A program made the position numbers and the translations under genes. A stretch of 18,658 bases of DNA from a virus. Taxonomy: Duplodnaviria > Heunggongvirae > Uroviricota > Caudoviricetes. This document shows positions 1-18,232 of the stretch, piece by piece (positions within the stretch are counted from its first letter, which is position 1; every line of letters begins with the position of its first letter). The notes beneath the pieces were generated by a model, which searched no databases, was not told the origin of the DNA, and was given only the letters and a program-made list of their open reading frames with translations. The DNA lies in IMG/VR virus record IMGVR_UViG_3300028453_000031; one strand, 5' to 3'.

Positions 1-586
1 TTTCCACCCGGCGCGCAGAAAGCATACGCAGCAGACGTTCACGGCTGAGAATTTCGCCCGGATTGGTCACAAATGCCACCAACATTTCATACTCTGCGCG
101 GGTTAGTTTAATCGGTTCGCCATCAAAACCTTTCAGGCGCGAATACACCGTCACCACCACAAACGGCAGGCAGAAGGTGATATGCGAGAACAGCAGCGAC
201 CAGAAGCAAAGCTGAATACCCAGCAGCATAAACAGCACCAGAAGCGAAATCGCCATCACAATATCTGGCGACATCATCACCACAAACAGCATTCCGCTAA
301 CGAACGGCTTACCACGAAAGCGATAACGGTACAACGCAACTGCCGTCAGTGAACCGATAAGCGTAGCAAACGTCGCCGAAAACACCGCCATCGTCAGTGA
401 ATGCTGAGCTGCCTGCAACAGACTGTCGTTGTTCATCAGCAGGCTATACCATTTGGTGGTAAAACCCTGCCAGTTGATGCCAAAGCGCGAGCTGTTGAAA
501 GAGTTCACAATCAAAATAATGATTGGGATATACAGGTACGCGTAGATAGCGGTCATAAAACCGCCGCGAAGCAGTCGACCGATCAT
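1..586 (-). CDS. potC: Host ABC transporter permease, PotC-like N-terminal region; apparently disrupted and chimeric at its 3' side
   Basis: Minus-strand ATG at 584-586 translates to MIGRLLRGGFMTAIYAYLYIPIIILIVNSFNSS..., which matches my recollection of the PotC N-terminus. As displayed, the frame hits TGA at 347-349 while PotC-like sequence continues in another frame. The last ~40 codons (1-121) encode GEPIKLTRAEYEMLVAFVTNPGEILSRERLL, an OmpR-family winged-helix segment. Confidence 0.5.
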   Translation of the reverse strand, partial: MIGRLLRGGFMTAIYAYLYIPIIILIVNSFNSSRFGINWQGFTTKWYSLLMNNDSLLQAAQHSLTMAVFSATFATLIGSLTAVALYRYRFRGKPFVSGMLFVVMMSPDIVMAISLLVLFMLLGIQLCFWSLLFSHITFCLPFVVVTVYSRLKGFDGEPIKLTRAEYEMLVAFVTNPGEILSRERLLRMLSARRVE

Positions 587-752
587 TCGAGTTCCACCTT
601 CTTATTCATAAGGCGGGGTACTTTCAGGATTTTGAATTTATTCAATTTTTTCCTTTCTCCAAAATCTCTCCAAAACTTTTCCCCAAAACAAGGCCACGCA
701 TTTTACAACACTTTTTTCCTGCGATGGTGACGGATATTCCATATAGTGTTTG
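587..752. other. Probable attL arm: AT-rich intergenic region between host gene start and integrase 3' end
   Basis: A/T tracts between the PotC-like start and the int stop; int is oriented toward it. The core sequence cannot be fixed without the other prophage end. Confidence 0.4.
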
Positions 753-1871: not shown

Positions 1872-2109
1872 GAGTTAAAATCTCCTTCAGTGCGTCATCA
1901 TCGTCAGTATGAATTTCCGGCGCAATTCCTGTTTCACCAGGACCCACAAATACTGCTCGGCGATCTATCAGCCAACGCCCACGGATTTTTTGTGGCCTTG
2001 GAACGATGTATCCCAGTTTTCCGTATTTCACCAGGGTAGAGTTTGTTATTGGGAGACTGAACCGTTTAGGCTTCCACTCGTCGAGCGTTATCAGGTACTG
2101 TTCGCTCAT
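1840..2109 (-). CDS. xis: Excisionase (Xis-like)
   Basis: MSEQYLITLDEWKPKRFSLPITNSTLVKYGKLGYIVPRPQKIRGRWLIDRRAV resembles lambda Xis (YLTLQEWNARQ...PPPVKDGREYLF). ATG at 2109 has a GGAG 8 nt upstream; the 3' end overlaps the int start. Confidence 0.8.
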   Translation of the reverse strand: MSEQYLITLDEWKPKRFSLPITNSTLVKYGKLGYIVPRPQKIRGRWLIDRRAVFVGPGETGIAPEIHTDDDDALKEILTHVTEATKKQH

Positions 2110-2170
2110 GGCCATCACTCCGGAATGCGCCAGTTGCAGAATAGCAACTACAACTGGCGACGGTTGAACA

Positions 2171-4627
2171 TTAAAAATCAGCCTGACTCGGGATCAGTTT
2201 TTGCCAGATGGCTGAAACGTATTTTGCCTGGTAACGCGCATCGTGCAGGGCGTTATGGCGTTCACCTTCGAATGGAATAGTCGTTCTTGCGTCGAAATCC
2301 ATCACCAGTCCCAGAGCAACCATCGTTCTTACATCGCGATCATTGGTATAACGCCACGGGCAGGGGATCCCCTGCCGTTCATATGAACGGCGTAAAATCA
2401 CGTTGTCGAAAGTTGCACCGTTACCCCAGACCTGAACAAAAAATTCACCGGAGTTTTCGTCGATAAATTCCCGCAATTGTAACAGTGCATCATCTAACGG
2501 GATTTCATCGGTCATAATGGCAGATTGCGCTTCGCGTGATTGCTTAAGCCACCATTTAATGGTGTCCCGATCAATGACTCCGCCAGCAGTTTCCAGATCG
2601 ACAGTCTTACTAAATTCCGGTCCCATATCTCCGGTTTGCGGATCGAAAAATATTGCACCTATTGAGATAATCGGGGCATCAGGATTTTTTCCCATGGTTT
2701 CAAGGTCGATCATTAGATGGTCACACGTCCTGCTGGTGGATGTGATAACGTGATGACCGTTCACCGTAATTAAGGGATCTGCCGTCTCGTCAGTTTCACT
2801 ATCGCTGGCGTGGTCCTGAGCGCTGCCAGCATTCTCCTTGCGTGGATGTTCAGCGCCTTCCATTTTCTCCGAATCGTCTTCCTGAACTTCAACCTGGTTC
2901 TTGTCATCGAATGTTTCCTGGTATGTTGCGTCGCCCATCACCGCACCACAATCAGGGCAGTTGCCGCCACCGCTCTGACCGCAGGCGGTGCAGATCTTTT
3001 CCGGTTCTTGTTGCACTACTGGTTCAGGTTGTTTCGTTTCTGGCTCGTTTTGTTGCGTATTTGGGCTGTTTTGTTCCGCTTTCTGGTCGTTCTGTTCCGT
3101 TTCTTGCTGGTTCTGGTTCACAGAATCGCGGGTTTCAATCCCCTTCACCCATTTAGGATCATTCGGATCGCTAATCCCTTCAACAAATTCACCACGCGAT
3201 ACAGCAAGCAACTTATCGGCATCAGGCTGGCTGATACTGGCTGCCTGCATAGTTTTGTTTACTTCGTCAGCGGTGACTTTTAATTGGTTAGCGGAACTCA
3301 CCTGCGACTGAGCATCCAGCGACTGCGCGTCCTGGCAATGTTCAGTTGTATCCGGTTCCATTCTTTCAGTTGTTGCCTGTTCACCTGCCATTGCGTCAGA
3401 TGGTTGTGGTTTTTCTTTTTCTGTTTCACGCTCAGTAACCACCTCGCGGTTAATTTCTTCCAGGATATCTTTTTCCGGCGTATGCCGGGCAGCTGTGAGA
3501 GTTTCCTTGCTGGGGTTCTCGTGATCAGTTTCCGTCAAATAGGCGTTGATATACCCCTGAAGGCGTCCCGGGTAGTGATAAAATTCAGGGTGTGCGCTTC
3601 GGATAAGTGCAAAAATAGCGGCGCGGGAATAGTCCAGAATACCCGGGGTTGCACGAAGTTCTGCGGACCATTCTTTGAACGGACTTTCTTTTTTCAGGAC
3701 GACTTCTTTTGCGCGACGATAAATGCTGCCCGGAATTTCATAAATATTAAAATCCATCGGAAGTGTGGCTGCTGCAATCTCCACATCCAGTGTGTCGAGG
3801 GTGTGTACTAAATTCGGATTGCGATCGGTTTTGTTCCCTCCACCGGCATTAGCACCGGAAGTCGTGCGGGTGATGCGTGAAACACGATTTCCTTTCATCC
3901 ACTCTTTTGTCAGCAGACCGCGATCGGTGTAGTCAGCGCCCAGGTATGCTTCGAAAAAAGCAGTCATCAGCCCCAGGTCTGAATTACCAGGATTAGGGAA
4001 AACCTTGTCAGTGTCACGAACCAGTTTGTGGAGATCGCGAATTTCCAGCGGTTCGAGTTGCGCAGCTTTATTTGAGATGGCCAGCGCGGTAACGGCGGGA
4101 AGTTTTTCATCCTGTGCGTTATGTAATGCACGCAGTTCGCCCCGCGAAACGTGTGTGATCGGTTTTTCGCTGCCGTGCTGTGCCAGCCATTGAACAGGCA
4201 GAATCTGACCTGAAACCGGCAGGAGCATATTCTCCTCAATCTCAGTCATGTCTTCGCTGTTGACGTTGGTATTGTCAGTGCTGGCTGGTTTGTCCTGAAC
4301 AGAGGATGAGGGCGCGATAGGTGAGGGCGCGATAAGTACCATTGTGATACCATCTTCCCCGCCTTTTTCGTATCGGTTGCAGAATTCGGTATCAAACACG
4401 CCTTCCGGAGGAAGGTCATTCACAACGGGTAAATGGACGCGAACAGGTTTTTTAAAATCCTCTTCGTCAAATCCAGCATCGTCCATTGCGACAACACCGC
4501 GTGATATTGCAACCGATAATTTTTTTGCTGTGCGCCAGTAAAAACCGCCTTTAATCCCAAGACGTTTTCTGACTTTGTCATTTTTGGCTTCGTAATATAG
4601 TGCAATTTCTTCTTTATCAGCGCTCAT
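2171..4627 (-). CDS. Large early protein with C-terminal DnaQ-like (DEDDh) 3'-5' exonuclease domain
   Basis: 818-aa ORF. C-terminal motifs: Exo I MIDLETMG, Exo II WGNGATFDNVIL, Exo III HNALHDARY. Central acidic/Gln-rich low-complexity region with CTACG...CPDCG zinc-ribbon-like pairs. GAGG 8 nt upstream of ATG. Confidence 0.8.
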   Translation of the reverse strand: MSADKEEIALYYEAKNDKVRKRLGIKGGFYWRTAKKLSVAISRGVVAMDDAGFDEEDFKKPVRVHLPVVNDLPPEGVFDTEFCNRYEKGGEDGITMVLIAPSPIAPSSSVQDKPASTDNTNVNSEDMTEIEENMLLPVSGQILPVQWLAQHGSEKPITHVSRGELRALHNAQDEKLPAVTALAISNKAAQLEPLEIRDLHKLVRDTDKVFPNPGNSDLGLMTAFFEAYLGADYTDRGLLTKEWMKGNRVSRITRTTSGANAGGGNKTDRNPNLVHTLDTLDVEIAAATLPMDFNIYEIPGSIYRRAKEVVLKKESPFKEWSAELRATPGILDYSRAAIFALIRSAHPEFYHYPGRLQGYINAYLTETDHENPSKETLTAARHTPEKDILEEINREVVTERETEKEKPQPSDAMAGEQATTERMEPDTTEHCQDAQSLDAQSQVSSANQLKVTADEVNKTMQAASISQPDADKLLAVSRGEFVEGISDPNDPKWVKGIETRDSVNQNQQETEQNDQKAEQNSPNTQQNEPETKQPEPVVQQEPEKICTACGQSGGGNCPDCGAVMGDATYQETFDDKNQVEVQEDDSEKMEGAEHPRKENAGSAQDHASDSETDETADPLITVNGHHVITSTSRTCDHLMIDLETMGKNPDAPIISIGAIFFDPQTGDMGPEFSKTVDLETAGGVIDRDTIKWWLKQSREAQSAIMTDEIPLDDALLQLREFIDENSGEFFVQVWGNGATFDNVILRRSYERQGIPCPWRYTNDRDVRTMVALGLVMDFDARTTIPFEGERHNALHDARYQAKYVSAIWQKLIPSQADF

Positions 4628-4717
4628 TGATAAACCTCATAACCATTTTTAGGGTGAACAAGTCCCTGCCATTGCTGGCATATAAAAATGAAACCGGATA
4701 TTTATTACGGTGCTGGT

Positions 4718-4909
4718 TTAAAGCCCTGCCGGGACTTCGTTATTATCCATGCGAATAACTTTATCTACCGGATAACAGTTACCGGGAATTTTCTGTTCAT
4801 CTGCGGCAGCCATGCATTCTTCCATTGAGTCACGTATATCAACAATAAGATCAAGTGGTTCGCCGGTATTAAGAAAAACTGTCAGAACGAGTGCGAATGC
4901 TGTATTCAT
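4718..4909 (-). CDS. Small hypothetical early protein (63 aa) with hydrophobic N-terminus
   Basis: MNTAFALVLTVFLNTGEPLDL...; start is coupled by an ATGA overlap to the stop of the upstream small gene. The ORF track's longer version (4718..4963) uses an upstream start I consider less likely. Confidence 0.5.
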   Translation of the reverse strand: MNTAFALVLTVFLNTGEPLDLIVDIRDSMEECMAAADEQKIPGNCYPVDKVIRMDNNEVPAGL

Positions 4910-5094
4910 TGCCAGTATCCTTTTTGCATCAGACGTAAACGGGCCAGCATTGAAACAATGCATATTTGATTTAATAACTCCCGTTCGTGTTTTCTCTTAT
5001 TAATGGCATCTTCAGTAAATGCAGGGTTACTGATACTGACACCAATTTCAAAACAACCTTCAGACGTATTAACGTTTGGTAATAACGTTTCCAT
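4906..5094 (-). CDS. Small hypothetical early protein (62 aa)
   Basis: ORF METLLPNVNTSEGCFEIG... with a GAGGA Shine-Dalgarno ~7 nt upstream of the ATG. Confidence 0.55.
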   Translation of the reverse strand: METLLPNVNTSEGCFEIGVSISNPAFTEDAINKRKHERELLNQICIVSMLARLRLMQKGYWQ

Positions 5095-5270
5095 TATCGC
5101 GTCCTCAACAATGAATTTTGTGATGCGGTGCCTGGTGCCTCCAGATGACGTTAACCAGTTAACAATTAACGCCGGATTGTTAGTTGATGTCTGTTACGGA
5201 AGTAAAAGACCGCTTGTTTTAACTGTTCCGCGTGCGCATAGCCGCATTCACCGCATCACAAAATTCACTT

Positions 5271-5297
5271 TAAAAAGGGCGGATATCCATTTCCGCC
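5271..5297 (-). terminator. Rho-independent terminator candidate for leftward early transcription (tL-like)
   Basis: Inverted repeat GGCGGA / TCCGCC (5278-5283 and 5292-5297) with an 8-nt loop; on the minus strand it is followed by a U-run (plus-strand A-run 5272-5276). Confidence 0.5.
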
Positions 5298-5617
5298 GAA
5301 TCACCAGAAAAGTGATAACAGAGGTTGTTGTGGCTGGGGTGTCACTTAAGCGTATGGTCAACCTGACAACCCGGTGTCCTCAATGGGGGAAGGAATAACC
5401 CCGCCATACTTACCGCCGCGCCATTTCGCGGATTGCCACAACCGGAAGCGCACGGTCGAATTAAATTTAACGACAAAGTACAGAGAGACGAACTTCGCCG
5501 AGCGCTTTCGTGTTGTGTGCCTGCTTTTAACCACGTCAGGTGAGGTGGACCTGTTATTCCCCAACAACAAGGATCTTGTTAATCTGGATATCCACAACAA
5601 CAATAAGAGTATTGAAT

Positions 5618-5797
5618 GTGATCGCTGAATTAACGGCAGCAATGACGGCTATTCGTGAAACCGCTCAGATTGCAAAACTAATGAACGAGGCAAAAACTCA
5701 AGCTGAAGTAAATGCGGCTATTGGTGAACTGAACTCAAAGCTTGCATCTATTCAGCGCGAATGCGTGTCTCTCGTTGAGCTGGTGGGCACTTATTAA
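5618..5797 (+). CDS. Small coiled-coil-like ORF on the plus strand, ending at an in-frame TAA
   Basis: Frame encodes ...VIAELTAAMTAIRETAQIAKLMNEAKTQAEVNAAIGELNSKLASIQRECVSLVELVGTY*. Start is uncertain (GTG 5618 with weak AAGAG, or ATG 5645). The same frame stays open after the stop through 6133. Confidence 0.35.
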   Translation: MIAELTAAMTAIRETAQIAKLMNEAKTQAEVNAAIGELNSKLASIQRECVSLVELVGTY

Positions 5798-5917
5798 GAA
5801 ATAAATGCTTCTCTCAAAGCTAAAATTGCAGAATTTGAAAACTTTGAGGCTCAGACGGAAGGTTATATCCTTAACCAACTTGAGTCGGGAACTTTTGTGT
5901 ACTCGAAGGAGGTAACC

Positions 5918-6133
5918 GTGAACGGCGGCAGCATAATCATGCATCTTTGTCCAAAATGTTTTGGACAAAATATAGTATCGATACTTCAACCATTCCCGGT
6001 TAGAGAATATGAGTTTTTTCATAAAAGCAGGTGCCTATACTGTGAAAATCAGTTTATTATGAATAAAAATCCGGATTATGTATCGCCTCCATCTATTGAG
6101 AAGTTGGCCAGAAAACTGAACGGCAATCTGTAG
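5918..6133 (+). CDS. Small zinc-ribbon protein (CxxC...CxxC) on the plus strand
   Basis: Strong Shine-Dalgarno AAGGAGG at 5906-5912, 5 nt before GTG 5918. Product VNGGSIIMHLCPKCFGQN...RCLYCENQF... has two CxxC pairs. Confidence 0.5.
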   Translation: MNGGSIIMHLCPKCFGQNIVSILQPFPVREYEFFHKSRCLYCENQFIMNKNPDYVSPPSIEKLARKLNGNL

Positions 6134-6246
6134 ATTGTTACTGTTATGGATATCCAGATTGTTAAAGAGCATGCCGGATGCTTGCTTGTGTCCGGCGCGT
6201 GTGCACCAGTTCTCCCCGTGGAGGATTCCTTAACTACCAGACTTCA

Positions 6247-6480
6247 TTAGTTAGAGTTTCTTGCTAACCAGCGATGCGCGCCAGCTGCGGTTTTAAACGT
6301 TTTACTTTTGGTATACGTCATCGCGGTGAAGGTGCCGTCCTGGTTAGGGAACACACCGCATACCAGAGATTCGTTGTTACCAAGATTGAGCGTATCCATG
6401 TTGACCTCATTTCCCCTTAACGCCGGGGGAGCGGAACAAAAACCTGCTGCATAGTTATTAATGTTGAACCCTGCCGTCAT
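6247..6480 (-). CDS. Hypothetical protein, first gene of the leftward (pL-like) operon
   Basis: 77-aa ORF with GAGG ~9 nt upstream of the ATG, immediately downstream of the left operator pair. Not Arg-rich, so not obviously N-like. Confidence 0.5.
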   Translation of the reverse strand: MTAGFNINNYAAGFCSAPPALRGNEVNMDTLNLGNNESLVCGVFPNQDGTFTAMTYTKSKTFKTAAGAHRWLARNSN

Positions 6481-6585
6481 GTTCTTACGCCTCAGGCTGG
6501 CTACTTAACCCCTGACCACTGCCGGGTAACTCGAAGTATTGCCCTGCGTTCTGTGGGGCGGGGTGGGTTGGTATGAAAAGAAGGA

Positions 6586-6621
6586 TACCCATAGGTATTT
6601 AAAAAGTAAATACCCATGGGT
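6586..6621. promoter_or_regulatory. Left operator pair (OL-like): two copies of ATACCCAYRGGT
   Basis: ATACCCATAGGTAT at 6586-6599 and ATACCCATGGGTA at 6609-6621 (TACCCATGGGTA is a perfect palindrome). The same motif recurs on the other side of the repressor gene. Confidence 0.5.
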
Positions 6622-6666
6622 AACTTTTTTTACGGTGTCTTAACTGGTGACTGGTTGTTTGGTGAG

Positions 6667-7086
6667 CTATGATGCGTTTTGCGCTTTCTTTTTACGGATT
6701 TCTTCGTAGATCATATTGTAATACTGTTTTTTCTCTTCAAGAGTTTTTAATAAGTTATCCGCTTCACTTTCTGGCAGTTCGTCTAAGAGATCTAAAAAAA
6801 TACGTTGTCGTGGCGTTAGAACCCTTGTTTCATAACTGGAGGCTGTGTTCGTTGATGATGAAACGATACCATCCATCCATCCCCGGGGTAACCCAAAGGA
6901 CTCTTCGATAATCTCCACCATATCATCAGCGATCCGTTTTTTTCCCTTTTTCCCCTCTGGGTACAACATTCTTGATACATAAGAAGGCTCGCGCCCGATC
7001 TTTCTGGCCACGTTAACCGCTTTACCATCGCATTTCTCATCACGAATTTTGATGAGTTGCTGTCGTCTAAATTCATATTTGTCCAT
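6667..7086 (-). CDS. Prophage repressor, RacR-like, HTH, without a LexA-type peptidase domain
   Basis: 139-aa ORF divergent from the cro-like gene, with an HTH-like segment AVNVARKIGREPSYVSRMLY and no S24 peptidase motifs. No obvious Shine-Dalgarno, so possibly leaderless like lambda cI. Confidence 0.8.
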   Translation of the reverse strand: MDKYEFRRQQLIKIRDEKCDGKAVNVARKIGREPSYVSRMLYPEGKKGKKRIADDMVEIIEESFGLPRGWMDGIVSSSTNTASSYETRVLTPRQRIFLDLLDELPESEADNLLKTLEEKKQYYNMIYEEIRKKKAQNAS

Positions 7087-7122
7087 AGGTAAATAATAGA
7101 TGCGATTACTGCAAGGTAAACA

Positions 7123-7158
7123 ACCTGTGGGTATTGACTTTTGTTTACCTGCGGGTAT
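7123..7158. promoter_or_regulatory. Right operator pair (OR-like) in the divergent promoter region
   Basis: ACCTGTGGGTAT at 7123-7134 and ACCTGCGGGTAT at 7147-7158 are reverse complements of the ATACCCAYRGGT motif seen at 6586-6621, within direct repeats TTGTTTACCTG. Confidence 0.55.
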
Positions 7159-7186
7159 TCTTTGCTGTGTTTACTAAGGAGTAGCT

Positions 7187-7468
7187 ATGGAAGAATTAAG
7201 AATATTTCTCAATTCTCTTTCGTCAGATGAACAGCGTATGTTTGCATGCGAGTGCGGTACCAGCATCGGTTATCTAAGAAAGGCATTGAGTAAAGGTCAA
7301 GTGTTAGGGGCATCGTTATGTGTCCTTATTGAGCGAGCCAGTAATGGTGAAGTTACACGTCAGCAACTAAGGCCTTTTGATTGGATGAATATTTGGCCCG
7401 AGCTGGAAGATACCAAAACGTTAACACAACCACTTTCTAGGAGCTTGATTCATGAAAATCAAGCATGA
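7187..7468 (+). CDS. Cro/CI-type HTH regulator, YdaS-like
   Basis: 93-aa ORF with AAGGAG Shine-Dalgarno, divergent from the repressor. HTH-like CGTSIGYLRKALSKGQ. Position and size match Rac ydaS. Confidence 0.75.
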   Translation: MEELRIFLNSLSSDEQRMFACECGTSIGYLRKALSKGQVLGASLCVLIERASNGEVTRQQLRPFDWMNIWPELEDTKTLTQPLSRSLIHENQA

Positions 7469-7877
7469 ACACATCTGTATGGCGATGAATGCCTGGGCGC
7501 GTCCTGATGGCGAAAAAGTTCCAGTAGCTGCAATAACCCAGGCTTATTTTGAGTTGGGTATGACGTTTCCTGAACTGTATGACGACAGCCATCCGGAAGC
7601 CCTGGCTCGCAATACCCAGAAAATTTTCCGCTGGGTAGAGAAGGACACCCCTGATGCTGTTGAAAAAATTCAGGCGTTGTTACCGGCGATCGAAAAGGCG
7701 ATGCCGCCTTTGCTGGTGGCCCGTATGCGCAGTCACAGCTCTGAATATTACCGTGAGATCGTCGAACGGAGGGATCGACTGGTGAAGGATGTCGATGATT
7801 TTGTTGCGTCAGCGGTTGTTTTGTATGACCAGATGAATCGCGGCGGCCCGGCAGGGAATGCTGTGGTGATGCACTAA
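7452..7877 (+). CDS. YdaT-like protein
   Basis: 141-aa ORF overlapping the YdaS-like 3' end, AGGAGC before the ATG. Order and size match Rac ydaS-ydaT. Confidence 0.7.
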   Translation: MKIKHEHICMAMNAWARPDGEKVPVAAITQAYFELGMTFPELYDDSHPEALARNTQKIFRWVEKDTPDAVEKIQALLPAIEKAMPPLLVARMRSHSSEYYREIVERRDRLVKDVDDFVASAVVLYDQMNRGGPAGNAVVMH

Positions 7878-7899
7878 AAGCACGGTGTTCGGGGGTTTT

Positions 7900-8862
7900 A
7901 TGAGCAGCAAGCTTCATGGTCTTGTCTGGGAAGGGTGCGCCTTCACCGGCATGATCTTATCCAGGGTGGCAGTTATGGCCCGTCTTGCAGACTACAGCAA
8001 TGACGAGGGCGTGTCATGGCCTGCCATTGAAACTATCCGGCGTCAGATCGGTGCAAGAAGTGAATCTACCGTGAAATCTGCTATTGCAGAACTGGCGAAA
8101 GAGGGCTGGCTGACGAAGGAAGAGCGTAAGGTCGGTGGGCGTAACGTAAGCAATATCTATCGGCTTAATGTGGAAAAACTCGAAGCAGCTGCAGCTGCGG
8201 CCCGTGAGGCATATAAACCGAAAAGAAAAATTAGCCCGGCAAAAAATGACCCGTTAACAGTTGACCCGTCAAATATTGACCCCTCAACTGTTGACCCGTC
8301 AAATTTTGATGGATCAACTGTTGATAAAAAACTGCCGATTAGGGGGGCGATGATTGACCCCGATCCGTCAGTATTAAAACCTGATCCGTCAGATAAAAGA
8401 TCTTCTTGTCCGGACGTTTCGCAACCGGACCCGCAGACGGCTGAACAGGATTTTTTAACCCGACACCCTGACGCGGTTGTGTTCAGTGCGAAAAAACGCC
8501 AGTGGGGAAGTCAGGAAGATTTGGCGTGCGCACAGTGGATCTGGGGACGAATCGTGAGTCTTTACGAGCAGGCGGCCAGCGATGATGGCGAGATCACGAG
8601 ACCGAAAGAACCCAACTGGACAGCATGGGCCAATGATGTGCGCACAATGCGGATGCTGGATGGCAGAACTCACAGACAAATTTGTGAAATGTTTGGGCGT
8701 GTCCAGCGGGATTCGTTCTGGGTAAAAAACATCATGAGTCCGGCAAAACTCCGGGAAAAATGGGATGAACTGGTTATCCGCCTGGGGCGTTCGCCCGCGC
8801 AGCGTTGCGTGAATCACATTTCTGAACCGGACACTGAAATACCGCCGGGATTCAGGGGGTGA
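7900..8862 (+). CDS. Replication initiator (O-like / YdaU-like) with N-terminal winged helix
   Basis: N-terminal HTH region (ARLADYSNDEGVSWPAIETIRRQIGARSESTVKSAIAELAKEGWL); internal tandem iterons; immediately upstream of the DnaC-like gene. ATG 7900 preferred over the track's GTG 7885 (G-rich SD-like stretch upstream). Confidence 0.8.
   Translation: MSSKLHGLVWEGCAFTGMILSRVAVMARLADYSNDEGVSWPAIETIRRQIGARSESTVKSAIAELAKEGWLTKEERKVGGRNVSNIYRLNVEKLEAAAAAAREAYKPKRKISPAKNDPLTVDPSNIDPSTVDPSNFDGSTVDKKLPIRGAMIDPDPSVLKPDPSDKRSSCPDVSQPDPQTAEQDFLTRHPDAVVFSAKKRQWGSQEDLACAQWIWGRIVSLYEQAASDDGEITRPKEPNWTAWANDVRTMRMLDGRTHRQICEMFGRVQRDSFWVKNIMSPAKLREKWDELVIRLGRSPAQRCVNHISEPDTEIPPGFRG
8246..8320. repeat. Iterons (candidate ori): five tandem ~15-bp repeats inside the initiator gene
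   Basis: Units TGACCCGTTAACAGT / TGACCCGTCAAATAT / TGACCCCTCAACTGT / TGACCCGTCAAATTT / TGATGGATCAACTGT with 15-bp period, encoding DPLTVDPSNIDPSTVDPSNFDGSTVD. This is the lambda O-type arrangement. Confidence 0.65.
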
Positions 8863-8868
8863 CGTGTC

Positions 8869-9606
8869 ATGAAAAACATTGCGGCAGTTGGGGTTCTTGA
8901 ACGTATTCGCAGAATTGCACCACAGGGGGAGGTTCCACCGTACCGTACGGTGGAGGAGTGGCGGGAATGGCAGCTTGCTGAAGGGCGTAAGCGCAGCGAG
9001 GAGGTTAATCGCCTGAATCATCAGACGCGGGTTGAAAAAATCATTAACCGCTCCGGTATCCAGCCGCTTCACTGGAAGTGTACGTTCGGTAACTACCGGG
9101 TGCAGAACGATGGTCAGCGCCATGCCCTGAGTCAGGCGAAATCCATTGCGGCAGAGCTGGAAGGCGGCTGTACGAATTTTGTTTTCAGTGGCCGACCTGG
9201 CACAGGGAAAAACCACCCGGCGGCGATAGGCAATCGGCTGATGGAGAAGGGGCGCAGCGTAATTATCATCACTGTGTCTGATGTCATGAGTGTGTCGCAC
9301 GACAGTTACGACAACGGCAAATCAGGTGAAAAATTTTTACAGGAGCTTTGCGAGGTGGATTTGCTGGTCCTGGATGAAATTGGCATGCAGCGGGATACGC
9401 GCAATGAGCAAGTCACGCTTAATCAGATTGTTGACCGCAGAACGTCATCATTACGCAGTGTAGGGATGCTGACGAACCTGAATCATGTCGCAATGAATAC
9501 GCTTGTAGGCGAAAGGGCAATGGACCGCATGTCCATGAACGGTGGTCGCTGGGTGACTTTTGACTGGGAGAGCTGGCGTCCGAACGTCAGCCAGCACAGG
9601 AACTGA
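8869..9606 (+). CDS. DnaC-like helicase loader (AAA+ ATPase)
   Basis: SGRPGTGKNHPAAIGN (Walker A as in E. coli DnaC GKPGTGKNH), LLVLDEIGMQ (Walker B), and a C-terminal region resembling DnaC (NQIVDRR...GMLTNLN). Start is coupled to the initiator stop. Confidence 0.85.
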   Translation: MKNIAAVGVLERIRRIAPQGEVPPYRTVEEWREWQLAEGRKRSEEVNRLNHQTRVEKIINRSGIQPLHWKCTFGNYRVQNDGQRHALSQAKSIAAELEGGCTNFVFSGRPGTGKNHPAAIGNRLMEKGRSVIIITVSDVMSVSHDSYDNGKSGEKFLQELCEVDLLVLDEIGMQRDTRNEQVTLNQIVDRRTSSLRSVGMLTNLNHVAMNTLVGERAMDRMSMNGGRWVTFDWESWRPNVSQHRN

Positions 9607-9634
9607 GATGTAATTTTTGTCGGAGGAAATTTTA

Positions 9635-10405
9635 ATGGAAACCGTTTTTGACGCACTGAAAGCAATGGGAAAAGCCACATCGGTAGAACTGGCTGCGCGA
9701 CTTGATATCAGTCGTGAAGAGGTTCTCAACGAGCTGTGGGAACTCAAAAGAAATGGCGTCGTTGATAAAACTGGTCACACCTGGTTTCTGGCTGGCGAAG
9801 GTGAATCCCGGGTAACCGAAGAGCAGCCAGCAAAATCTGAAGCACCGGATGTGCTGACCGGGGAGGTCGAACAAAAAGTTACCGCAGACATGATGATTGA
9901 GTTTATCGGTCAGGAGGGGGCTAAAACGTGTGAGGAACTGGCGGGTAAGTTCGGTGTTAGCACTCGCAAGGTTGCTTCCACGCTGGCGGTAGTAACCGCA
10001 ACGGGGCGGTTGGCACGCGTTAATCAGAACGGTAAATTTCGTTACTGCATGCCGGGCGATAATTTACCAGTAGAGCCGAAAGCCGCGCCGGTAACGGAAA
10101 ATGATGGTAAGGCATTTCCTCAGTCAGCAGGTGTTGCGTTACCAGTCCGGGAAGCTGCAACACAGGAAGAAATTAAAACAGAAACTGTGGCGGACATTGT
10201 GCAGTCGTTGCCATCGTTCACCGAAACGCAAACGGATGACCTGGTTTTACCATCGCTGCATATGGCAAACCGCGAACTGCGTCGGGCGAAAAGTCATGTC
10301 CAGAAGTGGGAGCGTGTCTGCGCCGCGTTGCGGGAGCTGAACAAGCACCGGGATATTGTTCGACAGATTGTCGATTCCTCCAGTCGTATTGTGTCGGAAA
10401 AGTGA
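9635..10405 (+). CDS. Hypothetical protein with two winged-helix-like repeats
   Basis: GGAGG 8 nt before ATG 9635 (track start TTG 9617 less likely). Two similar HTH-like segments: [26 protein letters not shown] and [30 protein letters not shown]. Confidence 0.7.
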
Positions 10406-10420
10406 TTGCCGGAGGCGCTT

Positions 10421-10843
10421 ATGGCAAAAGTATTTACACAGGAAGAGCGGGAAAAAATTAAAGGGCAGGTTGTTGAGCTAGTACGCCAGAGTGGGCGCGA
10501 GACGTTACGGCAACTGGAAGCCAAGACAGGTGCGACAAGATATCTGATGAGCGTTCTCGCAAGAGAGCTGGTTGCCAGTGGTGATGTATACAACTCTGGC
10601 TACGGGTTATTTCCCTCTGAACAGGCTCGTAAGGACTGGCAAAACGCCCGCAAAAAACTATCGAGGGCAAAGATGAAGAAATCGGTTGCAGTTGATCCGG
10701 ACCTTATCTGGTCATTACCTGACGGAGAAATACGTCGTTATGACAGGCACCAAAACATAATTTGCTGTGAGTGCCGGAAGAGTGAAGTTATGCAGCGTGT
10801 ACTGGCTTTCTATCAGGGTAATTTTCAGGAGGCGGTACTGTGA
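10421..10843 (+). CDS. Hypothetical protein
   Basis: GGAGG 5 nt before ATG 10421; 140-aa ORF tightly packed with its neighbours. Confidence 0.65.
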   Translation: MAKVFTQEEREKIKGQVVELVRQSGRETLRQLEAKTGATRYLMSVLARELVASGDVYNSGYGLFPSEQARKDWQNARKKLSRAKMKKSVAVDPDLIWSLPDGEIRRYDRHQNIICCECRKSEVMQRVLAFYQGNFQEAVL

Positions 10844-10900
10844 GTGAAATTAGCTATCAGGCTTCAATTGTCGCTGGCATTCGCATCAAAGGAGAGGAGC

Positions 10901-11257
10901 ATGGAAATAAAACCAGAAGATGAGTTAAGCAATATTGTTTTATTTCCGGTAAAAGAGGATGACCCACGTAATCAGGTTAATTTTCTTTATGAGCCATCGG
11001 AAAGACCATACTGCCATCACGCCTCTGTCCGGGTTGACGAAAAAGAGCGCCAGGTCCGATGCAAAATTTGCGGTGCGGTTGTGGAGCCATTTGACTGGAT
11101 GCTCTCAGTGGCGAAAAGAGAAACCAGACTGGCAGATGATGTAAGGCTATTGCGCCAGGAGGAACAGGAAAGGCGAAAAAATATAGAAAAGCTAATTCAG
11201 ATTGAGCGTAACGCGAAAGCGCGGATACGCAGGGCGACAAAATTTAGCCCCGAATAA
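10901..11257 (+). CDS. Hypothetical zinc-ribbon protein
   Basis: GGAGAGGAG before ATG 10901 (track GTG 10844 is in frame but has a weaker context). CHH...CKICG motif. Confidence 0.6.
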   Translation: MEIKPEDELSNIVLFPVKEDDPRNQVNFLYEPSERPYCHHASVRVDEKERQVRCKICGAVVEPFDWMLSVAKRETRLADDVRLLRQEEQERRKNIEKLIQIERNAKARIRRATKFSPE

Positions 11258-11422
11258 TTAACATTATTATCGGAAATAAAATCCTTAACCGGAGGGATTT
11301 CTGCACCCTCAGAACATCAGGAGGCCACCAGAAATGGCGGTAATGAAAAATTAACCAGAGAGCAATTAATCAAAGAAGCCAAATTAAAAATAGCGGTTGC
11401 GAAATGTCACCCCAATTCAGAG

Positions 11423-11689
11423 ATGGCTAGGGTAGAGGGCGAGCTATTCAAAATTGCACTGGCATCGCTGGAAGCAGAACCGGTGGCATATCAGTATCGC
11501 CTGTGGGATGCGGAATATGATGAATGGGGGGAATGGGAAGATTGCGGAGAATGCGCTTACGAAGGATTTGTTGAGGAAGAGAAACTCCAGGGGGCAGCTG
11601 TTCAGACCCGTAAGCTATACGCCACACCGCCAGTGCCGGTAGTGCCGGAATTTGAAACATGGTTTAACAGCCAGGAGTCAGGGAGATAA
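11423..11689 (+). CDS. Hypothetical acidic protein
   Basis: 88-aa ORF in the same orientation and operon context; weak RBS. Confidence 0.5.
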   Translation: MARVEGELFKIALASLEAEPVAYQYRLWDAEYDEWGEWEDCGECAYEGFVEEEKLQGAAVQTRKLYATPPVPVVPEFETWFNSQESGR

Positions 11690-11692
11690 ATC

Positions 11693-12193
11693 ATGATTAA
11701 TCGTACTAAACTGGAGCACATCCTCGAATATGCCAGGCAGCAGAGGCATATTGGTCAGCATTGTAAAATTCCAGCAGGAGATATGGTTGAAATCGTGGAG
11801 ATTGCCATGTGTAAGACTGGTAACTCTCAGGTAATTCCAGATGAGGTGCTGTCAGCAATTATGAAGGTAGTCAGGATTCGTACCGACTTTGCCGATTTTG
11901 ACGGTGACAGGCGAGGTATCGGTGATTGTCTGGATGAGTCTGAGCAAGAGCTTATCGTTACCATTAACAAATATGCCAGTCAGTTGGTAGTGGAACCGGT
12001 AGTACCTGATGAAGAACGGGAACAGACAGTCACGCCGCCAACACCTGGTAACCAGATTAACGAATTAACCATGTTGGTTAAGCGATTAGCCAGTTCGCTA
12101 AAAAGCGTCAATAAATCAAGCAAGCTACCTGATAAAGCGATGGAATATCTGAAGCAGAACGGACTGGTTGGTGTGGAGGATATTTTACGATGA
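11693..12193 (+). CDS. Hypothetical protein
   Basis: GGAG-rich Shine-Dalgarno before ATG 11693; 166-aa ORF; stop overlaps the next small ORF start (ATGA). Confidence 0.65.
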   Translation: MINRTKLEHILEYARQQRHIGQHCKIPAGDMVEIVEIAMCKTGNSQVIPDEVLSAIMKVVRIRTDFADFDGDRRGIGDCLDESEQELIVTINKYASQLVVEPVVPDEEREQTVTPPTPGNQINELTMLVKRLASSLKSVNKSSKLPDKAMEYLKQNGLVGVEDILR

Positions 12194-12273
12194 CCTGGCC
12201 TGAAGCATTTGCAATTGTAGGCGTTGCTATGGCTATCGCTTTTTTAGTATATGTTATTTGTCGGTGGGGGTAA
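12190..12273 (+). CDS. Small hydrophobic peptide (27 aa), single predicted TM helix
   Basis: MTWPEAFAIVGVAMAIAFLVYVICRWG; ATG overlaps the upstream stop (ATGA coupling). Confidence 0.4.
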   Translation: MTWPEAFAIVGVAMAIAFLVYVICRWG

Positions 12274-12307
12274 AACGTTCGCCGGGATTCACACCAAAGG
12301 AGGGAAT

Positions 12308-12412
12308 ATGTCGGATGATATTTCACTGGCAATGGAAGGCGCTCTGGCTGTTATTGCTGTTGTTATTGTTTACTGCCTGGTTGTGTTTTTGATGGATCGG
12401 CTGGGGAACTGA
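12308..12412 (+). CDS. Small hydrophobic peptide (34 aa), single predicted TM helix
   Basis: MSDDISLAMEGALAVIAVVIVYCLVVFLMDRLGN; strong AAGGAGGG Shine-Dalgarno at 12297-12304. Confidence 0.45.
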   Translation: MSDDISLAMEGALAVIAVVIVYCLVVFLMDRLGN

Positions 12413-12422
12413 ATTCATTGCG

Positions 12423-12656
12423 ATATGGGAATTCCCATATTGGGCAAAAACGGTTTGCTGTAAAGCGAGAGTTAAGTAGAATTGCTGCGGGTGCTTGAGG
12501 CTGTCTGCCTCGGGCATGCCGCCGTAAGGCAGACAGAGAAAAGCCCCAGTTAACATAACGCGTCCTGCAAGACGCTTAACATTAATCTGAGGCCCAATCT
12601 ATGTCTCACAAATGTAGGTTAGCCTCTTACGTGCCGAAGGCAAGGAGAAGCAGGCT
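12423..12656 (+). promoter_or_regulatory. hok mRNA leader region with strong secondary structure; expected location of the antisense (sok-like) RNA
   Basis: 18-bp perfect palindrome ATATGGGAATTCCCATAT (12423-12440); 10-bp perfect stem CTGTCTGCCT / AGGCAGACAG (12501-12510 and 12527-12536); short leader ORF 12601-12660 ending in ATGA at the hok start. Confidence 0.45.
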
Positions 12657-12812
12657 ATGAAGCAGCAAAAGGCGACGTTAATCGCCCTGATCGTCATCTG
12701 TTTAACCGTCATAGTGACGGCACTGGTAACGAGGAAAGACCTCTGCGAGGTACGAATCCGAACCGGCCAGACGGAGGTCGCTGTTTTCACAGTCTACGAA
12801 CCTGAGGAGTAA
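12657..12812 (+). CDS. hok: Hok/Gef family type I toxin
   Basis: 51-aa product MKQQKATLIALIVICLTVIVTALVTRKDLCEVRIRTGQTEVAVFTVYEPEE matches the Hok family pattern (TM helix then TRK.LCE.R.R.G..EVA....YE). AAGGAG 9 nt upstream. Confidence 0.85.
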   Translation: MKQQKATLIALIVICLTVIVTALVTRKDLCEVRIRTGQTEVAVFTVYEPEE

Positions 12813-12878
12813 GAGTGACCTGGGCGGGGTACTGATCCCATCCCCGCCCACCTCTGATGTGTCAGGCATCCTCAATGC

Positions 12879-12902
12879 ACCCGCACTTAACCCGCTTCGG
12901 CG
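12879..12902 (+). terminator. Rho-independent terminator after hok
   Basis: CCCGC-TTCG-GCGGG hairpin followed by TTTGTTTTTT. A further GGGCGGGG...CCCCGCCC inverted repeat lies at 12821-12848. Confidence 0.6.
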
Positions 12903-12986
12903 GGGTTTGTTTTTTCCTGGCATTCTGGTTTACAATTCGCACGTCAGCCTGAACAACTGGCACCTGCTGCGTCACCGGAGATCCCG

Positions 12987-13256
12987 ATGGCGCACGATAC
13001 CAGATTGCACAATTCTGCCGACCTTGCCAGCAGGCATGGGCGGCGTTCTCACACATTCAAATCTGACTGGTTCCAGCATGACCCGTGCACTGAAGAACAG
13101 GCCGAATGGCTGATTCAGTGCTACCGCAGACGTGGTTACGAGTTTCAGAAAGATCTCAGCTTCGATCGTCGTCACTGGATAATCTCCGTCAGGCTCCCTT
13201 ATTCCGAACGCCCACCGCGTTCATCCCGCACATACCAGCAACGTATCTGGAGGTAA
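12987..13256 (+). CDS. Hypothetical protein (89 aa)
   Basis: ATG with GGAG 8 nt upstream; stop lies one base before the GTG start of the next gene. Confidence 0.45.
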   Translation: MAHDTRLHNSADLASRHGRRSHTFKSDWFQHDPCTEEQAEWLIQCYRRRGYEFQKDLSFDRRHWIISVRLPYSERPPRSSRTYQQRIWR

Positions 13257-13257
13257 C

Positions 13258-14316
13258 GTGCGGGTATTACTTCGACCTGTTCTGGTACCGGAACTCGGGC
13301 TGGTGGTCCTTAAGCCGGGCCGTGAATCCATGCCGGTATTTCACAATCCCCGTGTGCTGGTGGAGCCTGAACCGAAAAGCATGAGTGGCCAGCCATCCGG
13401 GATCGTTCCTGTCGTTCGCCAGCCGCTGGCTGAGGATAAATCATTACTGCCATTTTTCAGCGATGAGCGGGTGATCCGTGCTGCTGGCGGTGCTGGTGCA
13501 CTGCCTGACTGGTTATTACGTCACGTGAAATCCTGTCAGTGGCCTCATGGTGATTATCATCACAGCGAAACCGTCATTCACCGTTACGGTACCGGCGCGA
13601 TGGTGTTGTGCTGGCACTGCGACAACCAGTTGCGGGAGCAGACATCTGATTCACTGGAGCAACTTGCTCAGCAGAATCTGGCAGCCTGGATGATTGATGT
13701 CATACGTCACGCAATGAATGGCACACAGGAGCGGGAACTGTCGCTGGCCGAATTATCCTGGTGGGCGGTCTGCAATCAGGTGGCTGATGCGCTTCCGGAG
13801 TCTGTATTGCGTCGTTCGCTGGGATTACCGGTGGAAAAAATCCGCTCCGTATACCGTGAGAGTGACATCATTCCGGGAGCGCAGACCTCCACCAGCATAC
13901 TGAAACAGCGCACAAAAAATATTACGCTACCGCCTCATACCCACCAGCAACAGACCCTACCACAGGAAAAGACGTTAGTAAGCATCGCCGTTGATCCGGA
14001 GTCTCCGGCTCAGTACCTCCAGCGCCAGAAACCACAACGGGAAGAGATGCCCGTATACACGCGCTGGGTAAAAACGCAGAAATGCATGACGTGTGGCAAT
14101 CAGGCAGATGATCCGCATCACATCATTGGTCATGGACTGGGAGGGATGGGAACAAAGGCTGACGATTTGTTTGTTATTCCGTTGTGCCGTAAATGCCATA
14201 ACGAACTGCATGCCGGAGTAAAAGATTTTGAAGAGAAACACGGCAGTCAGCTGTTGTTGCTGATTCGTTTTTTAATGCACGCGAGAAATTCGGGTGTTCT
14301 GAAGTGGAAAGCATAA
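13258..14316 (+). CDS. DUF968/YdfU-like protein with C-terminal HNH/YbcO-like zinc-binding nuclease motif
   Basis: C-terminus CMTCGNQADDPHHIIGHGLGGMGTKADDLFVIPLCRKCHNELH has the cysteine/histidine pattern of YbcO/DUF968-type phage nucleases. GGAGG ~4 nt before GTG 13258. Confidence 0.7.
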   Translation: MRVLLRPVLVPELGLVVLKPGRESMPVFHNPRVLVEPEPKSMSGQPSGIVPVVRQPLAEDKSLLPFFSDERVIRAAGGAGALPDWLLRHVKSCQWPHGDYHHSETVIHRYGTGAMVLCWHCDNQLREQTSDSLEQLAQQNLAAWMIDVIRHAMNGTQERELSLAELSWWAVCNQVADALPESVLRRSLGLPVEKIRSVYRESDIIPGAQTSTSILKQRTKNITLPPHTHQQQTLPQEKTLVSIAVDPESPAQYLQRQKPQREEMPVYTRWVKTQKCMTCGNQADDPHHIIGHGLGGMGTKADDLFVIPLCRKCHNELHAGVKDFEEKHGSQLLLLIRFLMHARNSGVLKWKA

Positions 14317-14553
14317 ATGACCGAACGCATAGAATTTGTTTTGCCTTACCCGCCAACGGTGAACACTTACTGGCGACGTCGTGACCTGGACAACATTCTG
14401 AAAGCGCCACTGGATGCGCTGACGCATGCAGGACTACTTATCGACGACGAGCAGTTTGATGAAATTAATATTGTGCGCGGTCTGCCTGTTCCTGGCGGAC
14501 GGCTTGGTGTGAAAATTTACGAAATAACGCATGGCGGGCAGGCAAAAGAATGA
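14317..14553 (+). CDS. rusA: RusA-family Holliday junction resolvase with apparent internal in-frame deletion (78 aa versus ~120 aa)
   Basis: N-terminus LPYPPTVNTYW and C-terminal part RRRDLDNILKAPLDALTHAGLLIDDEQ...GGRLGVKIYEI align to RusA as I recall it; about 40 central residues are absent. ATGA coupling at both ends. Confidence 0.65.
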   Translation: MTERIEFVLPYPPTVNTYWRRRDLDNILKAPLDALTHAGLLIDDEQFDEINIVRGLPVPGGRLGVKIYEITHGGQAKE

Positions 14554-15371
14554 AACTGGAAGATTTACCAAAATACTATTCCCCAAAATCACCGGGTCTG
14601 ACGGATGCATCGGCCTCAACGTCAAAAGATGCGCTGAGTATCACTGATGTGATGGCAGCGCAGGGCATGACACAGAATCGGGCTGAGATGGGGTTTTCTG
14701 CGTTCCTTGGGAAAATGGGCATTAGTATGAATGACAGAGAGCGGGCAACAGAATTGCTGACAGAATATGCACTCAGTCGGTGTGATCGCGTGGCGGCGTT
14801 AAGAAAACTCCCGGCAGAAATAAAACCGGCAGTGATGCGTATTATGGCTTCGTATGCGTTTGAAGATTATGCCCGTAGCGCGGCGAGCAAAAAACAGTGC
14901 CCCTGCTGTCACGGAAAAAAATTTATTGAAAGCGAGGTTTTTACAAACAAGATCCAGTATCCGGATGGTAAGCCGCCAGTGTGGGCAAAGTGCACAAAAG
15001 GCGTGTATCCGTCTTACTGGGAGGAATGGAAAAAAGTCAGGGAGGTGGTAAAAGTTGCCTGTCCGGAGTGTGGAGGGAAGGGAGAGGTATCCACTGCCTG
15101 TAAAGATTGTCGTGGGCGCGGTGTTGCCATTCATCGTGAAGAGTCGGAAAAACAGGGTGTGCCGGTTTTCAGAAACTGTCAGCGTTGTGGTGGGCGTGGC
15201 TATGAAAGATTACCTTCAACGGAGGCATTTAATGCCATATGTAATGTAACCGATGCCATATCTCTTGATACATGGAAAAAAACAGTTAAACGTTTTTACG
15301 ATACGCTGGTGGTGCAGTTTGATATTGAAGAAGCATGGGCAGAACAACAACTGAAAAAGGTGACCAGATAG
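14550..15371 (+). CDS. Late-gene antiterminator Q-like protein (multi-CxxC zinc binding)
   Basis: Position after rusA and before the late promoter and tRNAs. SPKSP...TDVMAAQGM N-terminal pattern and several CxxC pairs. Family assignment is from memory of Q-type proteins. Confidence 0.65.
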   Translation: MKLEDLPKYYSPKSPGLTDASASTSKDALSITDVMAAQGMTQNRAEMGFSAFLGKMGISMNDRERATELLTEYALSRCDRVAALRKLPAEIKPAVMRIMASYAFEDYARSAASKKQCPCCHGKKFIESEVFTNKIQYPDGKPPVWAKCTKGVYPSYWEEWKKVREVVKVACPECGGKGEVSTACKDCRGRGVAIHREESEKQGVPVFRNCQRCGGRGYERLPSTEAFNAICNVTDAISLDTWKKTVKRFYDTLVVQFDIEEAWAEQQLKKVTR

Positions 15372-17043: not shown

Positions 17044-17119
17044 GGCCCTTTAGCTCAGTGGTGAGAGCGAGCGACTCATAATCGCCAGGTCGCTGGTTCA
17101 AATCCAGCAAGGGCCACCA
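17044..17119 (+). tRNA. ileZ: tRNA-Ile (anticodon CAU, lysidine type), ileX/ileZ-like
   Basis: 76 nt, 7-bp acceptor stem GGCCCTT/AAGGGCC, anticodon loop CTCATAA, T-loop TTCAAAT, 3' CCA. Near-identical to E. coli tRNA-Ile2 as I recall it. Confidence 0.85.
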
Positions 17120-17128
17120 TATCACATA

Positions 17129-17205
17129 CCGCCATTAGCTCATCGGGATAGAGCGCCAGCCTTCGAAGCTGGCTGCGCGGGGTTCGAGTCCTCGATGGCG
17201 GTCCA
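17129..17205 (+). tRNA. tRNA-Arg (anticodon UCG)
   Basis: 77 nt, acceptor CCGCCAT/ATGGCGG, D-arm GCTC/GAGC, anticodon stem CCAGC/GCTGG with loop CTTCGAA, T-arm CGGGG-TTCGAGT-CCTCG, 3' CCA. Resembles the rare-codon Arg tRNA (argO-like) of Stx phages. Confidence 0.8.
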
Positions 17206-17483: not shown

Positions 17484-17912
17484 ATGTATTGCCGTGCTGT
17501 ACCGGTTCTTGTTTTGATATTAGCCAGTCTGACAACTGGCTGCACAAAAGATGTATCGACAAATAATCATGATGCTTCTCTGTATCACTCAGATAAATTA
17601 ATAAAGTCGCAAAATTTGAGCTCATCGGAACGTACCCCTGATGCCAGTGAAGAAATCCGGCAGTATGCCATTCAGGTCAGGAAAGCCATAGAAGAACAGT
17701 TAAAGGATGCGAGTAAGTATTCAGGAAAAGAGTGTTCACTGAGAATGTATATGGCCCCGAATGGTCTTCTGCTACAGGTTAAAAGAGAAAGCGGTGATCC
17801 CGATTTATGTCGTGAAGCGATGAATGCAGTAAAGAATGCTGATATACCATCACCACCGTCTTCAGGAGTATATAAAGCATTTAGAAATGGCGTGCTGGAT
17901 TTTAAACTCTGA
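17484..17912 (+). CDS. Lipoprotein with TolA C-terminal domain (domain III)-like mature region; moron candidate
   Basis: Signal peptide with lipobox LTTGC. Residues ~57-142 (YAIQVRKAIEEQLKDASKYSGKECSLRMYMAPNGLLLQVKRESGDPDLCREAMNAVKNADIPSPPSSGVYKAFRNGVLDFKL) align with the TolA C-terminal domain, including both cysteines. GGAG 8 nt upstream; markedly AT-rich gene and flanks. Confidence 0.8.
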   Translation: MYCRAVPVLVLILASLTTGCTKDVSTNNHDASLYHSDKLIKSQNLSSSERTPDASEEIRQYAIQVRKAIEEQLKDASKYSGKECSLRMYMAPNGLLLQVKRESGDPDLCREAMNAVKNADIPSPPSSGVYKAFRNGVLDFKL

Positions 17913-17942: not shown

Positions 17943-18202
17943 GATTTTGGGGCGCTGGAAAGATATTGTGCTGTGAAGTGTTAAATCCCTCACAATTCAG
18001 TAAGTTGACAGTTGCCTGTCAGACTGAGCATTTGTTAAAAAAATTTCGCATGGTGAATCCCCCTGTGCGGAGGGGCGACTGGTGAACGGTATGATCTCTT
18101 TGATGATCGTAAGCGAGAATACGCGGGTTTGGTGTCACCGGGCTGAACTCACCGGGAGGCACCCGGCACCATGCTCATGGTGATACAGAAATGCGGCTTC
18201 AG

Positions 18203-18228
18203 CCCCTCTCCGGAGGGGCTTTCTTATG
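18203..18228 (+). terminator. Rho-independent terminator (plus strand)
   Basis: GCCCCTC-TCCG-GAGGGGC perfect 7-bp stem followed by TTTCTTAT. Confidence 0.5.
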
Positions 18229-18232
18229 GACA

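Follow-up and report, generated by a model that had tools for sequence, protein, structure and literature searches.

The rusA locus and the rest of the window

The window, i.e., the whole 18,658-nt stretch of DNA analyzed here, is the arm of a lambdoid prophage that carries the early and nin regions. The genes run from int, xis and a RecE-like exonuclease through immunity and replication genes to hokD/sok, a DUF968 gene, rusA and Q, followed by an N6-methylase gene, two tRNA genes and an open reading frame with a TolA C-terminal domain. The reading frame under study (positions 14317-14553, plus strand) comprises 78 uninterrupted codons and a stop, and its product is MTERIEFVLPYPPTVNTYWRRRDLDNILKAPLDALTHAGLLIDDEQFDEINIVRGLPVPGGRLGVKIYEITHGGQAKE. 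It was recognized as a deletion allele of rusA from the list of open reading frames, its match to the Pfam RusA family and a match in two blocks to a RusA structure in the PDB. The same protein from M18 and CI5 is present in RefSeq (WP_046201483.1), labeled as a RusA family protein without a pseudogene flag.

Upstream of rusA is a gene of the DUF968/YdfU family (13258-14316, plus strand; PF06147, 213.8 bits) with an HNH-like C-terminus (PF16784, 31.8 bits), and downstream is the gene for the late-gene antiterminator Q (14550-15371, plus strand), identified by PF03589 (174.4 bits) and by its sequence. The TAA stop codon of the DUF968 gene (14314-14316) directly abuts the ATG of rusA, the TGA of rusA overlaps the ATG of Q as ATGA (14550-14553), and a weak AGG is located 7 nt upstream of the Q start codon, within the 3' end of rusA. 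The first-pass annotation, made from the sequence alone, had described the same arrangement, which suggests that rusA may be translationally coupled to both neighbors. DUF968 preceded rusA in every related locus and backbone examined. Speculatively, a second nuclease in the operon, the HNH-like DUF968 protein, may ease tolerance of the loss of RusA.

The remainder of the window contains several other recognizable features. The RecE-like exonuclease (2171-4627, minus strand) is an 818-aa protein in which a RecE-like N-terminal region (PF06630) is combined with an Rv2179c-like 3'-5' exoribonuclease domain (PF16473, 221 bits) at the C-terminus. Positions 12489-12812 (plus strand) encode a type I toxin-antitoxin system, hok/sok, which consists of a HokD open reading frame (12657-12812) and an Rfam sok match (12489-12662); the position is occupied by ParDE in other backbones. 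Two phage tRNA genes lie just after the methylase gene on the plus strand, one with the anticodon CAT (17044-17119) and one with the anticodon TCG (Arg; 17129-17205). The former is called Ile by PGAP in relatives and is probably a tRNA-Ile2, and the M18 prophage has Ile and Lys tRNAs at this place instead. A 142-aa open reading frame with a TolA C-terminal domain (17484-17912, plus strand; PF06519, 81 bits) lies beyond Q and the tRNAs in the moron slot, which is the place of stx in related phages, and an AraC-type regulator is found next in related loci. An sRNA of the STnc100 family (18019-18231, plus strand; Rfam, 172 bits vs. a gathering threshold of 47) is located in the same late-region moron area.

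At the left end of the window, a torR fragment (1-121) is fused to codons 1-155 of potC (122-586), both on the minus strand, and the torR part is 100% identical to the torR of several genomes. The BLAST matches of the two genes overlap by 6 nt (GTTCGC, 116-121), and in a reference genome about 122 kb separates the two collinear pieces. Among 5,426 complete genomes of E. coli, none had this torR-potC junction. If it had arisen by simple deletion, essential genes, lolCDE among them, would have been lost, and the junction is therefore the product either of a chimeric assembly or of a rearrangement that kept the segment elsewhere.

The deletion and what it leaves of the RusA fold

The relationship of the 78-aa product to RusA was significant with both Pfam and E. 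coli RusA. The RusA profile (PF05866) gave a score of 30.6 bits against a gathering threshold of 22.8, with the match confined to profile positions 77-122 of 124, and a phmmer comparison with E. coli RusA (1q8r; E = 2.8e-10) aligned residues 7-22 with RusA 6-21 and residues 20-70 with RusA 67-117. The two aligned blocks overlap on the tripeptide RRR. The gene of the E. coli protein, in the DLP12 prophage (1Q8R, 2H8C, 2H8E; PF05866), likewise lies in a lambdoid nin region directly before Q. The two proteins are homologous at both ends, and the short one keeps the Arg-rich loop as well as counterparts of D70, D72, K76 and D91. In contrast to E. coli RusA, the short allele has no equivalents of residues ~22-66, which make up the distal part of the flexible loop, alpha1 and beta2.

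Alignment of the window with full-length sisters of 126 aa (D1 and Ecol_316), at both the DNA and the protein level, revealed a single clean gap, exactly 144 nt (48 codons) long. Over the shared residues, the short allele had 97% amino acid identity to the rusA product of D1 (WP_023307891.1) and 88% to that of Ecol_316 (WP_000140014.1). The closest full-length relative at the DNA level was D1, which differed at 8 of 237 nt (96.6% identity); no full-length parent that exactly matched the allele of the window was found, the nearest sequences being D1 and, at the protein level, P0004 (70/74 aa). The single gap, together with the two-block match, bears out the first-pass reading of this gene as a rusA with an in-frame internal deletion that kept the N-terminal motif and the catalytic C-terminal region. 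The length of 78 aa was also correct, but the loss had been put slightly too low, at about 40 of about 120 residues rather than 48 of 126.

The breakpoint was located from the overlap of the BLAST pieces, the DNA alignment and breakpoint analysis. The pieces of matches that aligned in two parts overlap at query positions 274-284, which correspond to window positions 14373-14383 (plus strand) and to the sole kept copy of a repeat, GCGACGTCGTG, encoding W19-R20-R21-R22-D23. The N-terminal remnant (codons 1-19; 14317-14373, plus strand) consists of beta1 and the helical turn of PPTVNTYW, equivalent to about residues 1-18 of RusA, as judged from the alignments to RusA 6-21 and to the full-length alleles and from the secondary-structure map of the model (E2-7 and H13-16). 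The C-terminal remnant (codons 23-78; 14383-14550, plus strand) contains alpha2, beta3 and beta4 and aligns to RusA 67-117.

Full-length parents contain two copies of the repeat 144 bp apart, TGG-CGA-CGT-CGT-GGC (W-RRR-G) on the 5' side and AAG-CGC-CGT-CGT-GAC (K-RRR-D) on the 3' side. The two copies agree at 10 of 11 positions, with an exact core of 7 nt, and make up an imperfect direct repeat of 11 nt, GCGNCGYCGTG. Across the parents, the copies (GCGACGTCGTG and GCG(C/T)CGTCGTG) are 141-144 nt apart, and a single copy is left in each short allele. Since both repeats encode RRR in one codon register at a distance of 144 nt, a deletion between them is in frame by construction, without selection. 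Classic spontaneous deletions in lacI, described by Albertini and colleagues in 1982, reportedly also occurred between short direct repeats by slipped-strand mispairing. The rusA deletions resemble those of the lacI type in having endpoints within short direct repeats, in keeping one copy and in a crossover point that varies between events. They differ in that the rusA repeats are in codon phase and the product stays open; replication slippage in rusA, presumably independent of RecA, is inferred from the deletion product. A search of the deleted 144 bp for promoters and terminators found only a weak hairpin (CGCCGTGATGTGGCG), and the scan, with two hits against 0.5 +/- 0.8 expected, did not exceed noise.

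RusA resolves Holliday junctions as a homodimer, cutting them symmetrically with Mg2+, and suppresses ruv mutants; its structure indicates what the deletion would cost. The monomer is a four-stranded mixed sheet with two flanking helices, and the dimer interface is formed between the sheets (PMC1636454). A flexible loop (residues 15-28) enters the opened center of the junction, with R19, R24 and T25 aiding sequence recognition (PMC1636454). The catalytic residues are D70, D72, D91 and K76, R69 binds DNA, and the Arg-rich loop (residues 65-69) provides the main DNA contacts (PMC1636454; PMC10956419). In the 78-aa product, alignment places D23 (14383-14385) and D25 (14389-14391) of the DLD motif, K29 (14401-14403), and D43 and D44 (14446-14448) of DDEQ, all on the plus strand, at the positions of D70, D72, K76, D90 and D91, and R22 at that of R69; the Arg-rich loop is kept as the fused RRR. 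Of the loop that inserts into the junction, only the proximal NTYWRRR is left and the equivalents of RusA 22-28 are deleted. The equivalent of the conserved R35 (PMC1636454) also falls in the deleted part.

AlphaFold2 models emphasized these losses. A full-length relative (P0002, 124 aa) was modeled confidently (pLDDT 85.5, pTM 0.79), with the elements E2-7, H13-16, E17-20, E23-26, H28-43, E54-60, H67-83, E93-100 and E109-115 in the order beta1, short helical turn, beta-hairpin, alpha1, beta2, alpha2, beta3 and beta4. The deletion spans parent residues 21-68 and takes out alpha1 (28-43) and beta2 (54-60) entirely, together with connecting loops and the distal half of the hairpin. At equal alignment depth, the short form was modeled at low confidence (pLDDT 53.2, pTM 0.30) with only E4-9, H21-38 and E49-54, values that are to be read in light of the models being monomers and of AlphaFold2 confidence not being a validated predictor of stability for deletion mutants. 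Foldseek matched the full-length model to RusA structures at a TM score of 0.80 (E = 2e-11), and the best RusA match of the short model was non-significant (E = 0.09, TM 0.39). Without alpha1 and beta2, the 78-aa form does not contain the complete fold of four strands and two helices. Left with one helix out of two and three strands out of four, the short product is predicted to be unfolded or misfolded, unable to form the RusA fold or the sheet-to-sheet dimer, and hence not to be an active resolvase.

Judged by sequence alone, the short product may have residual DNA binding or some activity, given the catalytic residues and Arg-rich loop that it keeps. One rival reading is a minimized resolvase in which beta1, alpha2, beta3, beta4 and the catalytic set still dimerize and cut junctions. 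Although the equivalents of D70, D72, K76, D91 and R69 are present and the Pfam gathering score is passed, 40% of the fold is gone, including alpha1 of the core, beta2 and the loop that inserts into the junction. The low AlphaFold2 confidence and the lack of a significant RusA match in Foldseek also argue against it, as does the finding that no RusA family of this size was present among 400 homologs, in which the short proteins were singleton derivatives of full-length alleles. We regard a still active enzyme as very improbable. The first-pass annotation had allowed for either a tolerated remnant or a minimized variant, and the former is favored over the latter, with alpha1, beta2 and half of the hairpin missing and the fold no longer predicted.

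Distribution of the short allele and recurrence of its junction

The DUF968-rusA-Q segment was detected in about 1,000 of the 5,426 complete E. coli genomes, and nearly all of the matches listed consisted of two pieces spanning 845 bp, compared to 701 bp in the window. Only two of these genomes, M18 and CI5, were collinear with the window. Full-length RusA of this lineage (clusters P0002, P0004 and P0008) has the same neighbors, ATGA overlap, start and stop as the window allele, but contains the 144-bp segment between the RRR-coding repeats; it is the common state, found in about 1,000 complete genomes and in clusters with over 1,000 member sequences, compared to two genomes for the short allele. 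None of about 15 deposited phage genomes with this rusA lineage had the short form, and all of them matched in two pieces across the junction, with 144 additional nt. The exact 78-aa protein was found on 99 contigs, with 173 blocks in the contig index, which amounts to about 100-170 assemblies.

The carrier was always one lambdoid prophage integrated at potC. In M18, the prophage adjoins potC and runs from int through Q to lysis genes, terminase, portal and protease. A cytochrome b gene after the lysis cassette had raised the idea that the carrier is a remnant without morphogenesis genes, which was rejected since terminase, portal and protease genes lie beyond it in M18. Three loci in draft genomes shared 99.77% identity with the window, and the M18 type about 98%. 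By BLAST, window and M18 were essentially identical from about 500 to 14722, with no differences in the 237 nt of rusA or the 1,059 nt of DUF968. They diverged by 5-10% from 14723, inside Q, to 17205, and the moron region beyond was wholly different. A mosaic recombination breakpoint can be placed at about 14554-14723, with identity through the first ~170 nt of Q and divergence after it. The short allele has persisted in two sub-lineages of the potC prophage, set apart by a mosaic exchange that came later and begins within Q. The pattern points to a single deletion event inherited by descent in this lineage, with the carriers having since swapped the module from Q to the morons.

A search of 5.8 billion proteins retrieved 400 homologs, a set biased toward in-frame alleles that keep both ends because the short protein was the query. 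Among them, three other short alleles carried the same YWRRR|DLDN junction in different phage backbones. P0005 (76 aa) is from a Shiga-toxin phage with ParDE upstream and stxA and stxB after Q, P0050 (72 aa) has a PF06323-type Q downstream, and P0121 (71 aa) has a DnaB-type replication module upstream. Each of the short alleles was nearest to a full-length one: P0005 to P0032 (76/76 identical residues), P0121 to P0015 and P0020 (71/71), P0050 to P0073 (70/72) and the window allele (P0001) to P0004 (70/74). Compared with each other over shared columns, the short alleles were only 69-90% identical. The DNA of matched pairs gave the same result. A full-length and a short allele from Stx phages (L011 and L005) had no mismatches in 231 nt outside the 144-nt deletion, and the pair L013 and L010 had two in 216 nt outside a 141-nt deletion. 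The loci L005, L006 and L007 (gene at 3001-3231 in L005) belong to an Stx-converting prophage with stxA and stxB right after Q and an independent occurrence of this rusA deletion.

The repeat variant at each junction (CGA CGT CGT, CGT CGT CGT or CGC CGC CGT) was that of the allele's own parent, and the crossover occurred in different sub-segments of the repeat from event to event. A single ancient deletion spread by recombination was rejected, since both the repeat variant at the junction and the two flanks match the respective parent. Sequence comparison indicates at least three, and probably four, independent deletions through one repeat pair. A second class of alleles (P0033, P0037 and P0062) has its 5' endpoint in a YRR cluster at codons ~33-35 joined to the same 3' RRR cluster, with deletions of 93-99 nt that are in frame and leave the overlap with Q. 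Relative to the window allele, the sister deletions differ in backbone, junction codons and size (141, 144 or 93-99 nt). Taken together, the alleles suggest that the Arg-codon repeats act as a recurrent deletion hotspot, which is a modestly new point. The repeat pair itself is statistically ordinary, an equally good 10/11 pair being present in 25-38% of codon-shuffled genes, and the term hotspot therefore rests on recurrence and not on repeat strength. Literature searches yielded no description of truncated RusA alleles or of this hotspot.

Further in-frame internal deletions of 4 to 58 residues were observed in P0003, P0010, P0013, P0044, P0047, P0051, P0072, P0080, P0083 and P0086, and in P0072, P0083 and P0086 the DLD motif itself is lost. 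A single assembly set (DIV21, DIV28 and DIV31) yielded three different junctions in one background, which may be assembly noise. That set, and the several other short RusA-like proteins in the database, are what could be cited for a sequencing or assembly artifact or a naturally short RusA subfamily. For the window allele both are refuted, leaving them next to no probability: the short alleles are polyphyletic, each beside its full-length parent, and M18 and CI5, two independent complete chromosomes, both contain the identical 237-nt gene, with the exact protein on at least 99 contigs and in many assemblies from different samples.

The recurrence raises the question of selection. The product of 71-78 aa could have been selected or become neo-functional as a spacer for coupling to Q or as a DNA-binding or dominant-negative partner of the full-length RusA of co-resident prophages, or selection could have favored the loss of a nuclease costly to the lysogen. 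Consistent with this, at least three or four backbones acquired the same junction independently, all of the short alleles overlap the start of Q, whether it is of the PF03589 or PF06323 type, the Arg-rich loop and acidic residues are kept, and P0001 outlasted a later mosaic exchange and reached its 100-170 assemblies. Against it, in-phase repeats fully account for both the recurrence and the retained frame, the search favored in-frame alleles with both ends, every short allele is rare next to full-length clusters of more than 1,000 member sequences, and the in-frame deletions that remove DLD point to undirected decay. No selection signal could be obtained for the short allele, as its carriers, identical across rusA and the upstream 1,059-nt gene, are too alike for purifying selection to be detected. 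A selected mini-protein is in our judgment improbable. Hardly more probable, and still unlikely, is the related idea that the Arg-codon clusters (codons 18-20, 34-35 and 66-68) constitute a built-in, recurrent switch to an open reading frame of ~75 aa, with either the product or the loss of RusA with preserved translation of Q being selected in lambdoid and Stx phages.

Origin and significance of the short allele

The most likely explanation is an ordinary kind of prophage gene decay that left a dead but tolerated remnant. Specifically, we propose that the gene is a loss-of-function allele of a lambdoid-prophage rusA that arose by a slippage-type deletion and remains open, inactive and tolerated, and we put the probability of this reading at roughly 0.8. 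The parent would have been a gene for a 126-aa RusA with two Arg-codon repeats in phase, separated by 144 bp. During replication, slipped-strand mispairing or some other deletion by short homology would have dropped the segment and left one copy of the repeat, and with RRR in the same register on both repeats, the product would automatically be in frame. The first-pass annotation had called a clean in-frame deletion in a resolvase unusual, a view that does not hold when the frame follows mechanically from the repeats and the event is repeated. The deleted protein would then fail to form the RusA fold and dimer and leave no active resolvase.

Lambda nin5 and rap genetics are the basis for considering rusA dispensable in this phage, and the rusA of DLP12 is silent in K-12. 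Tolerance of the short allele probably reflects the accessory role of RusA in recombination, as a nin-region function, and an open frame that would leave the ATGA overlap, and hence any coupling into the essential late regulator Q, undisturbed.

As a decayed accessory prophage gene, the allele by itself changes little. RefSeq and PGAP call the 78-aa product and similar products of 71-88 aa intact, under the name RusA family crossover junction endodeoxyribonuclease, and gene-content or machine-learning studies with rusA presence as a feature (e.g., PMC12711010) would include among the positives an allele that is probably dead. The occurrence of the same junction in four backgrounds provides a clean natural case in which codon-phase repeats for a basic motif predispose a gene to in-frame collapse, and the recurrent junction could be used to measure the rates of slippage-type deletion in prophages. 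If retention of the frame matters for Q, translational coupling would limit gene decay in the nin region, including that of Stx phages, where Q controls toxin release.
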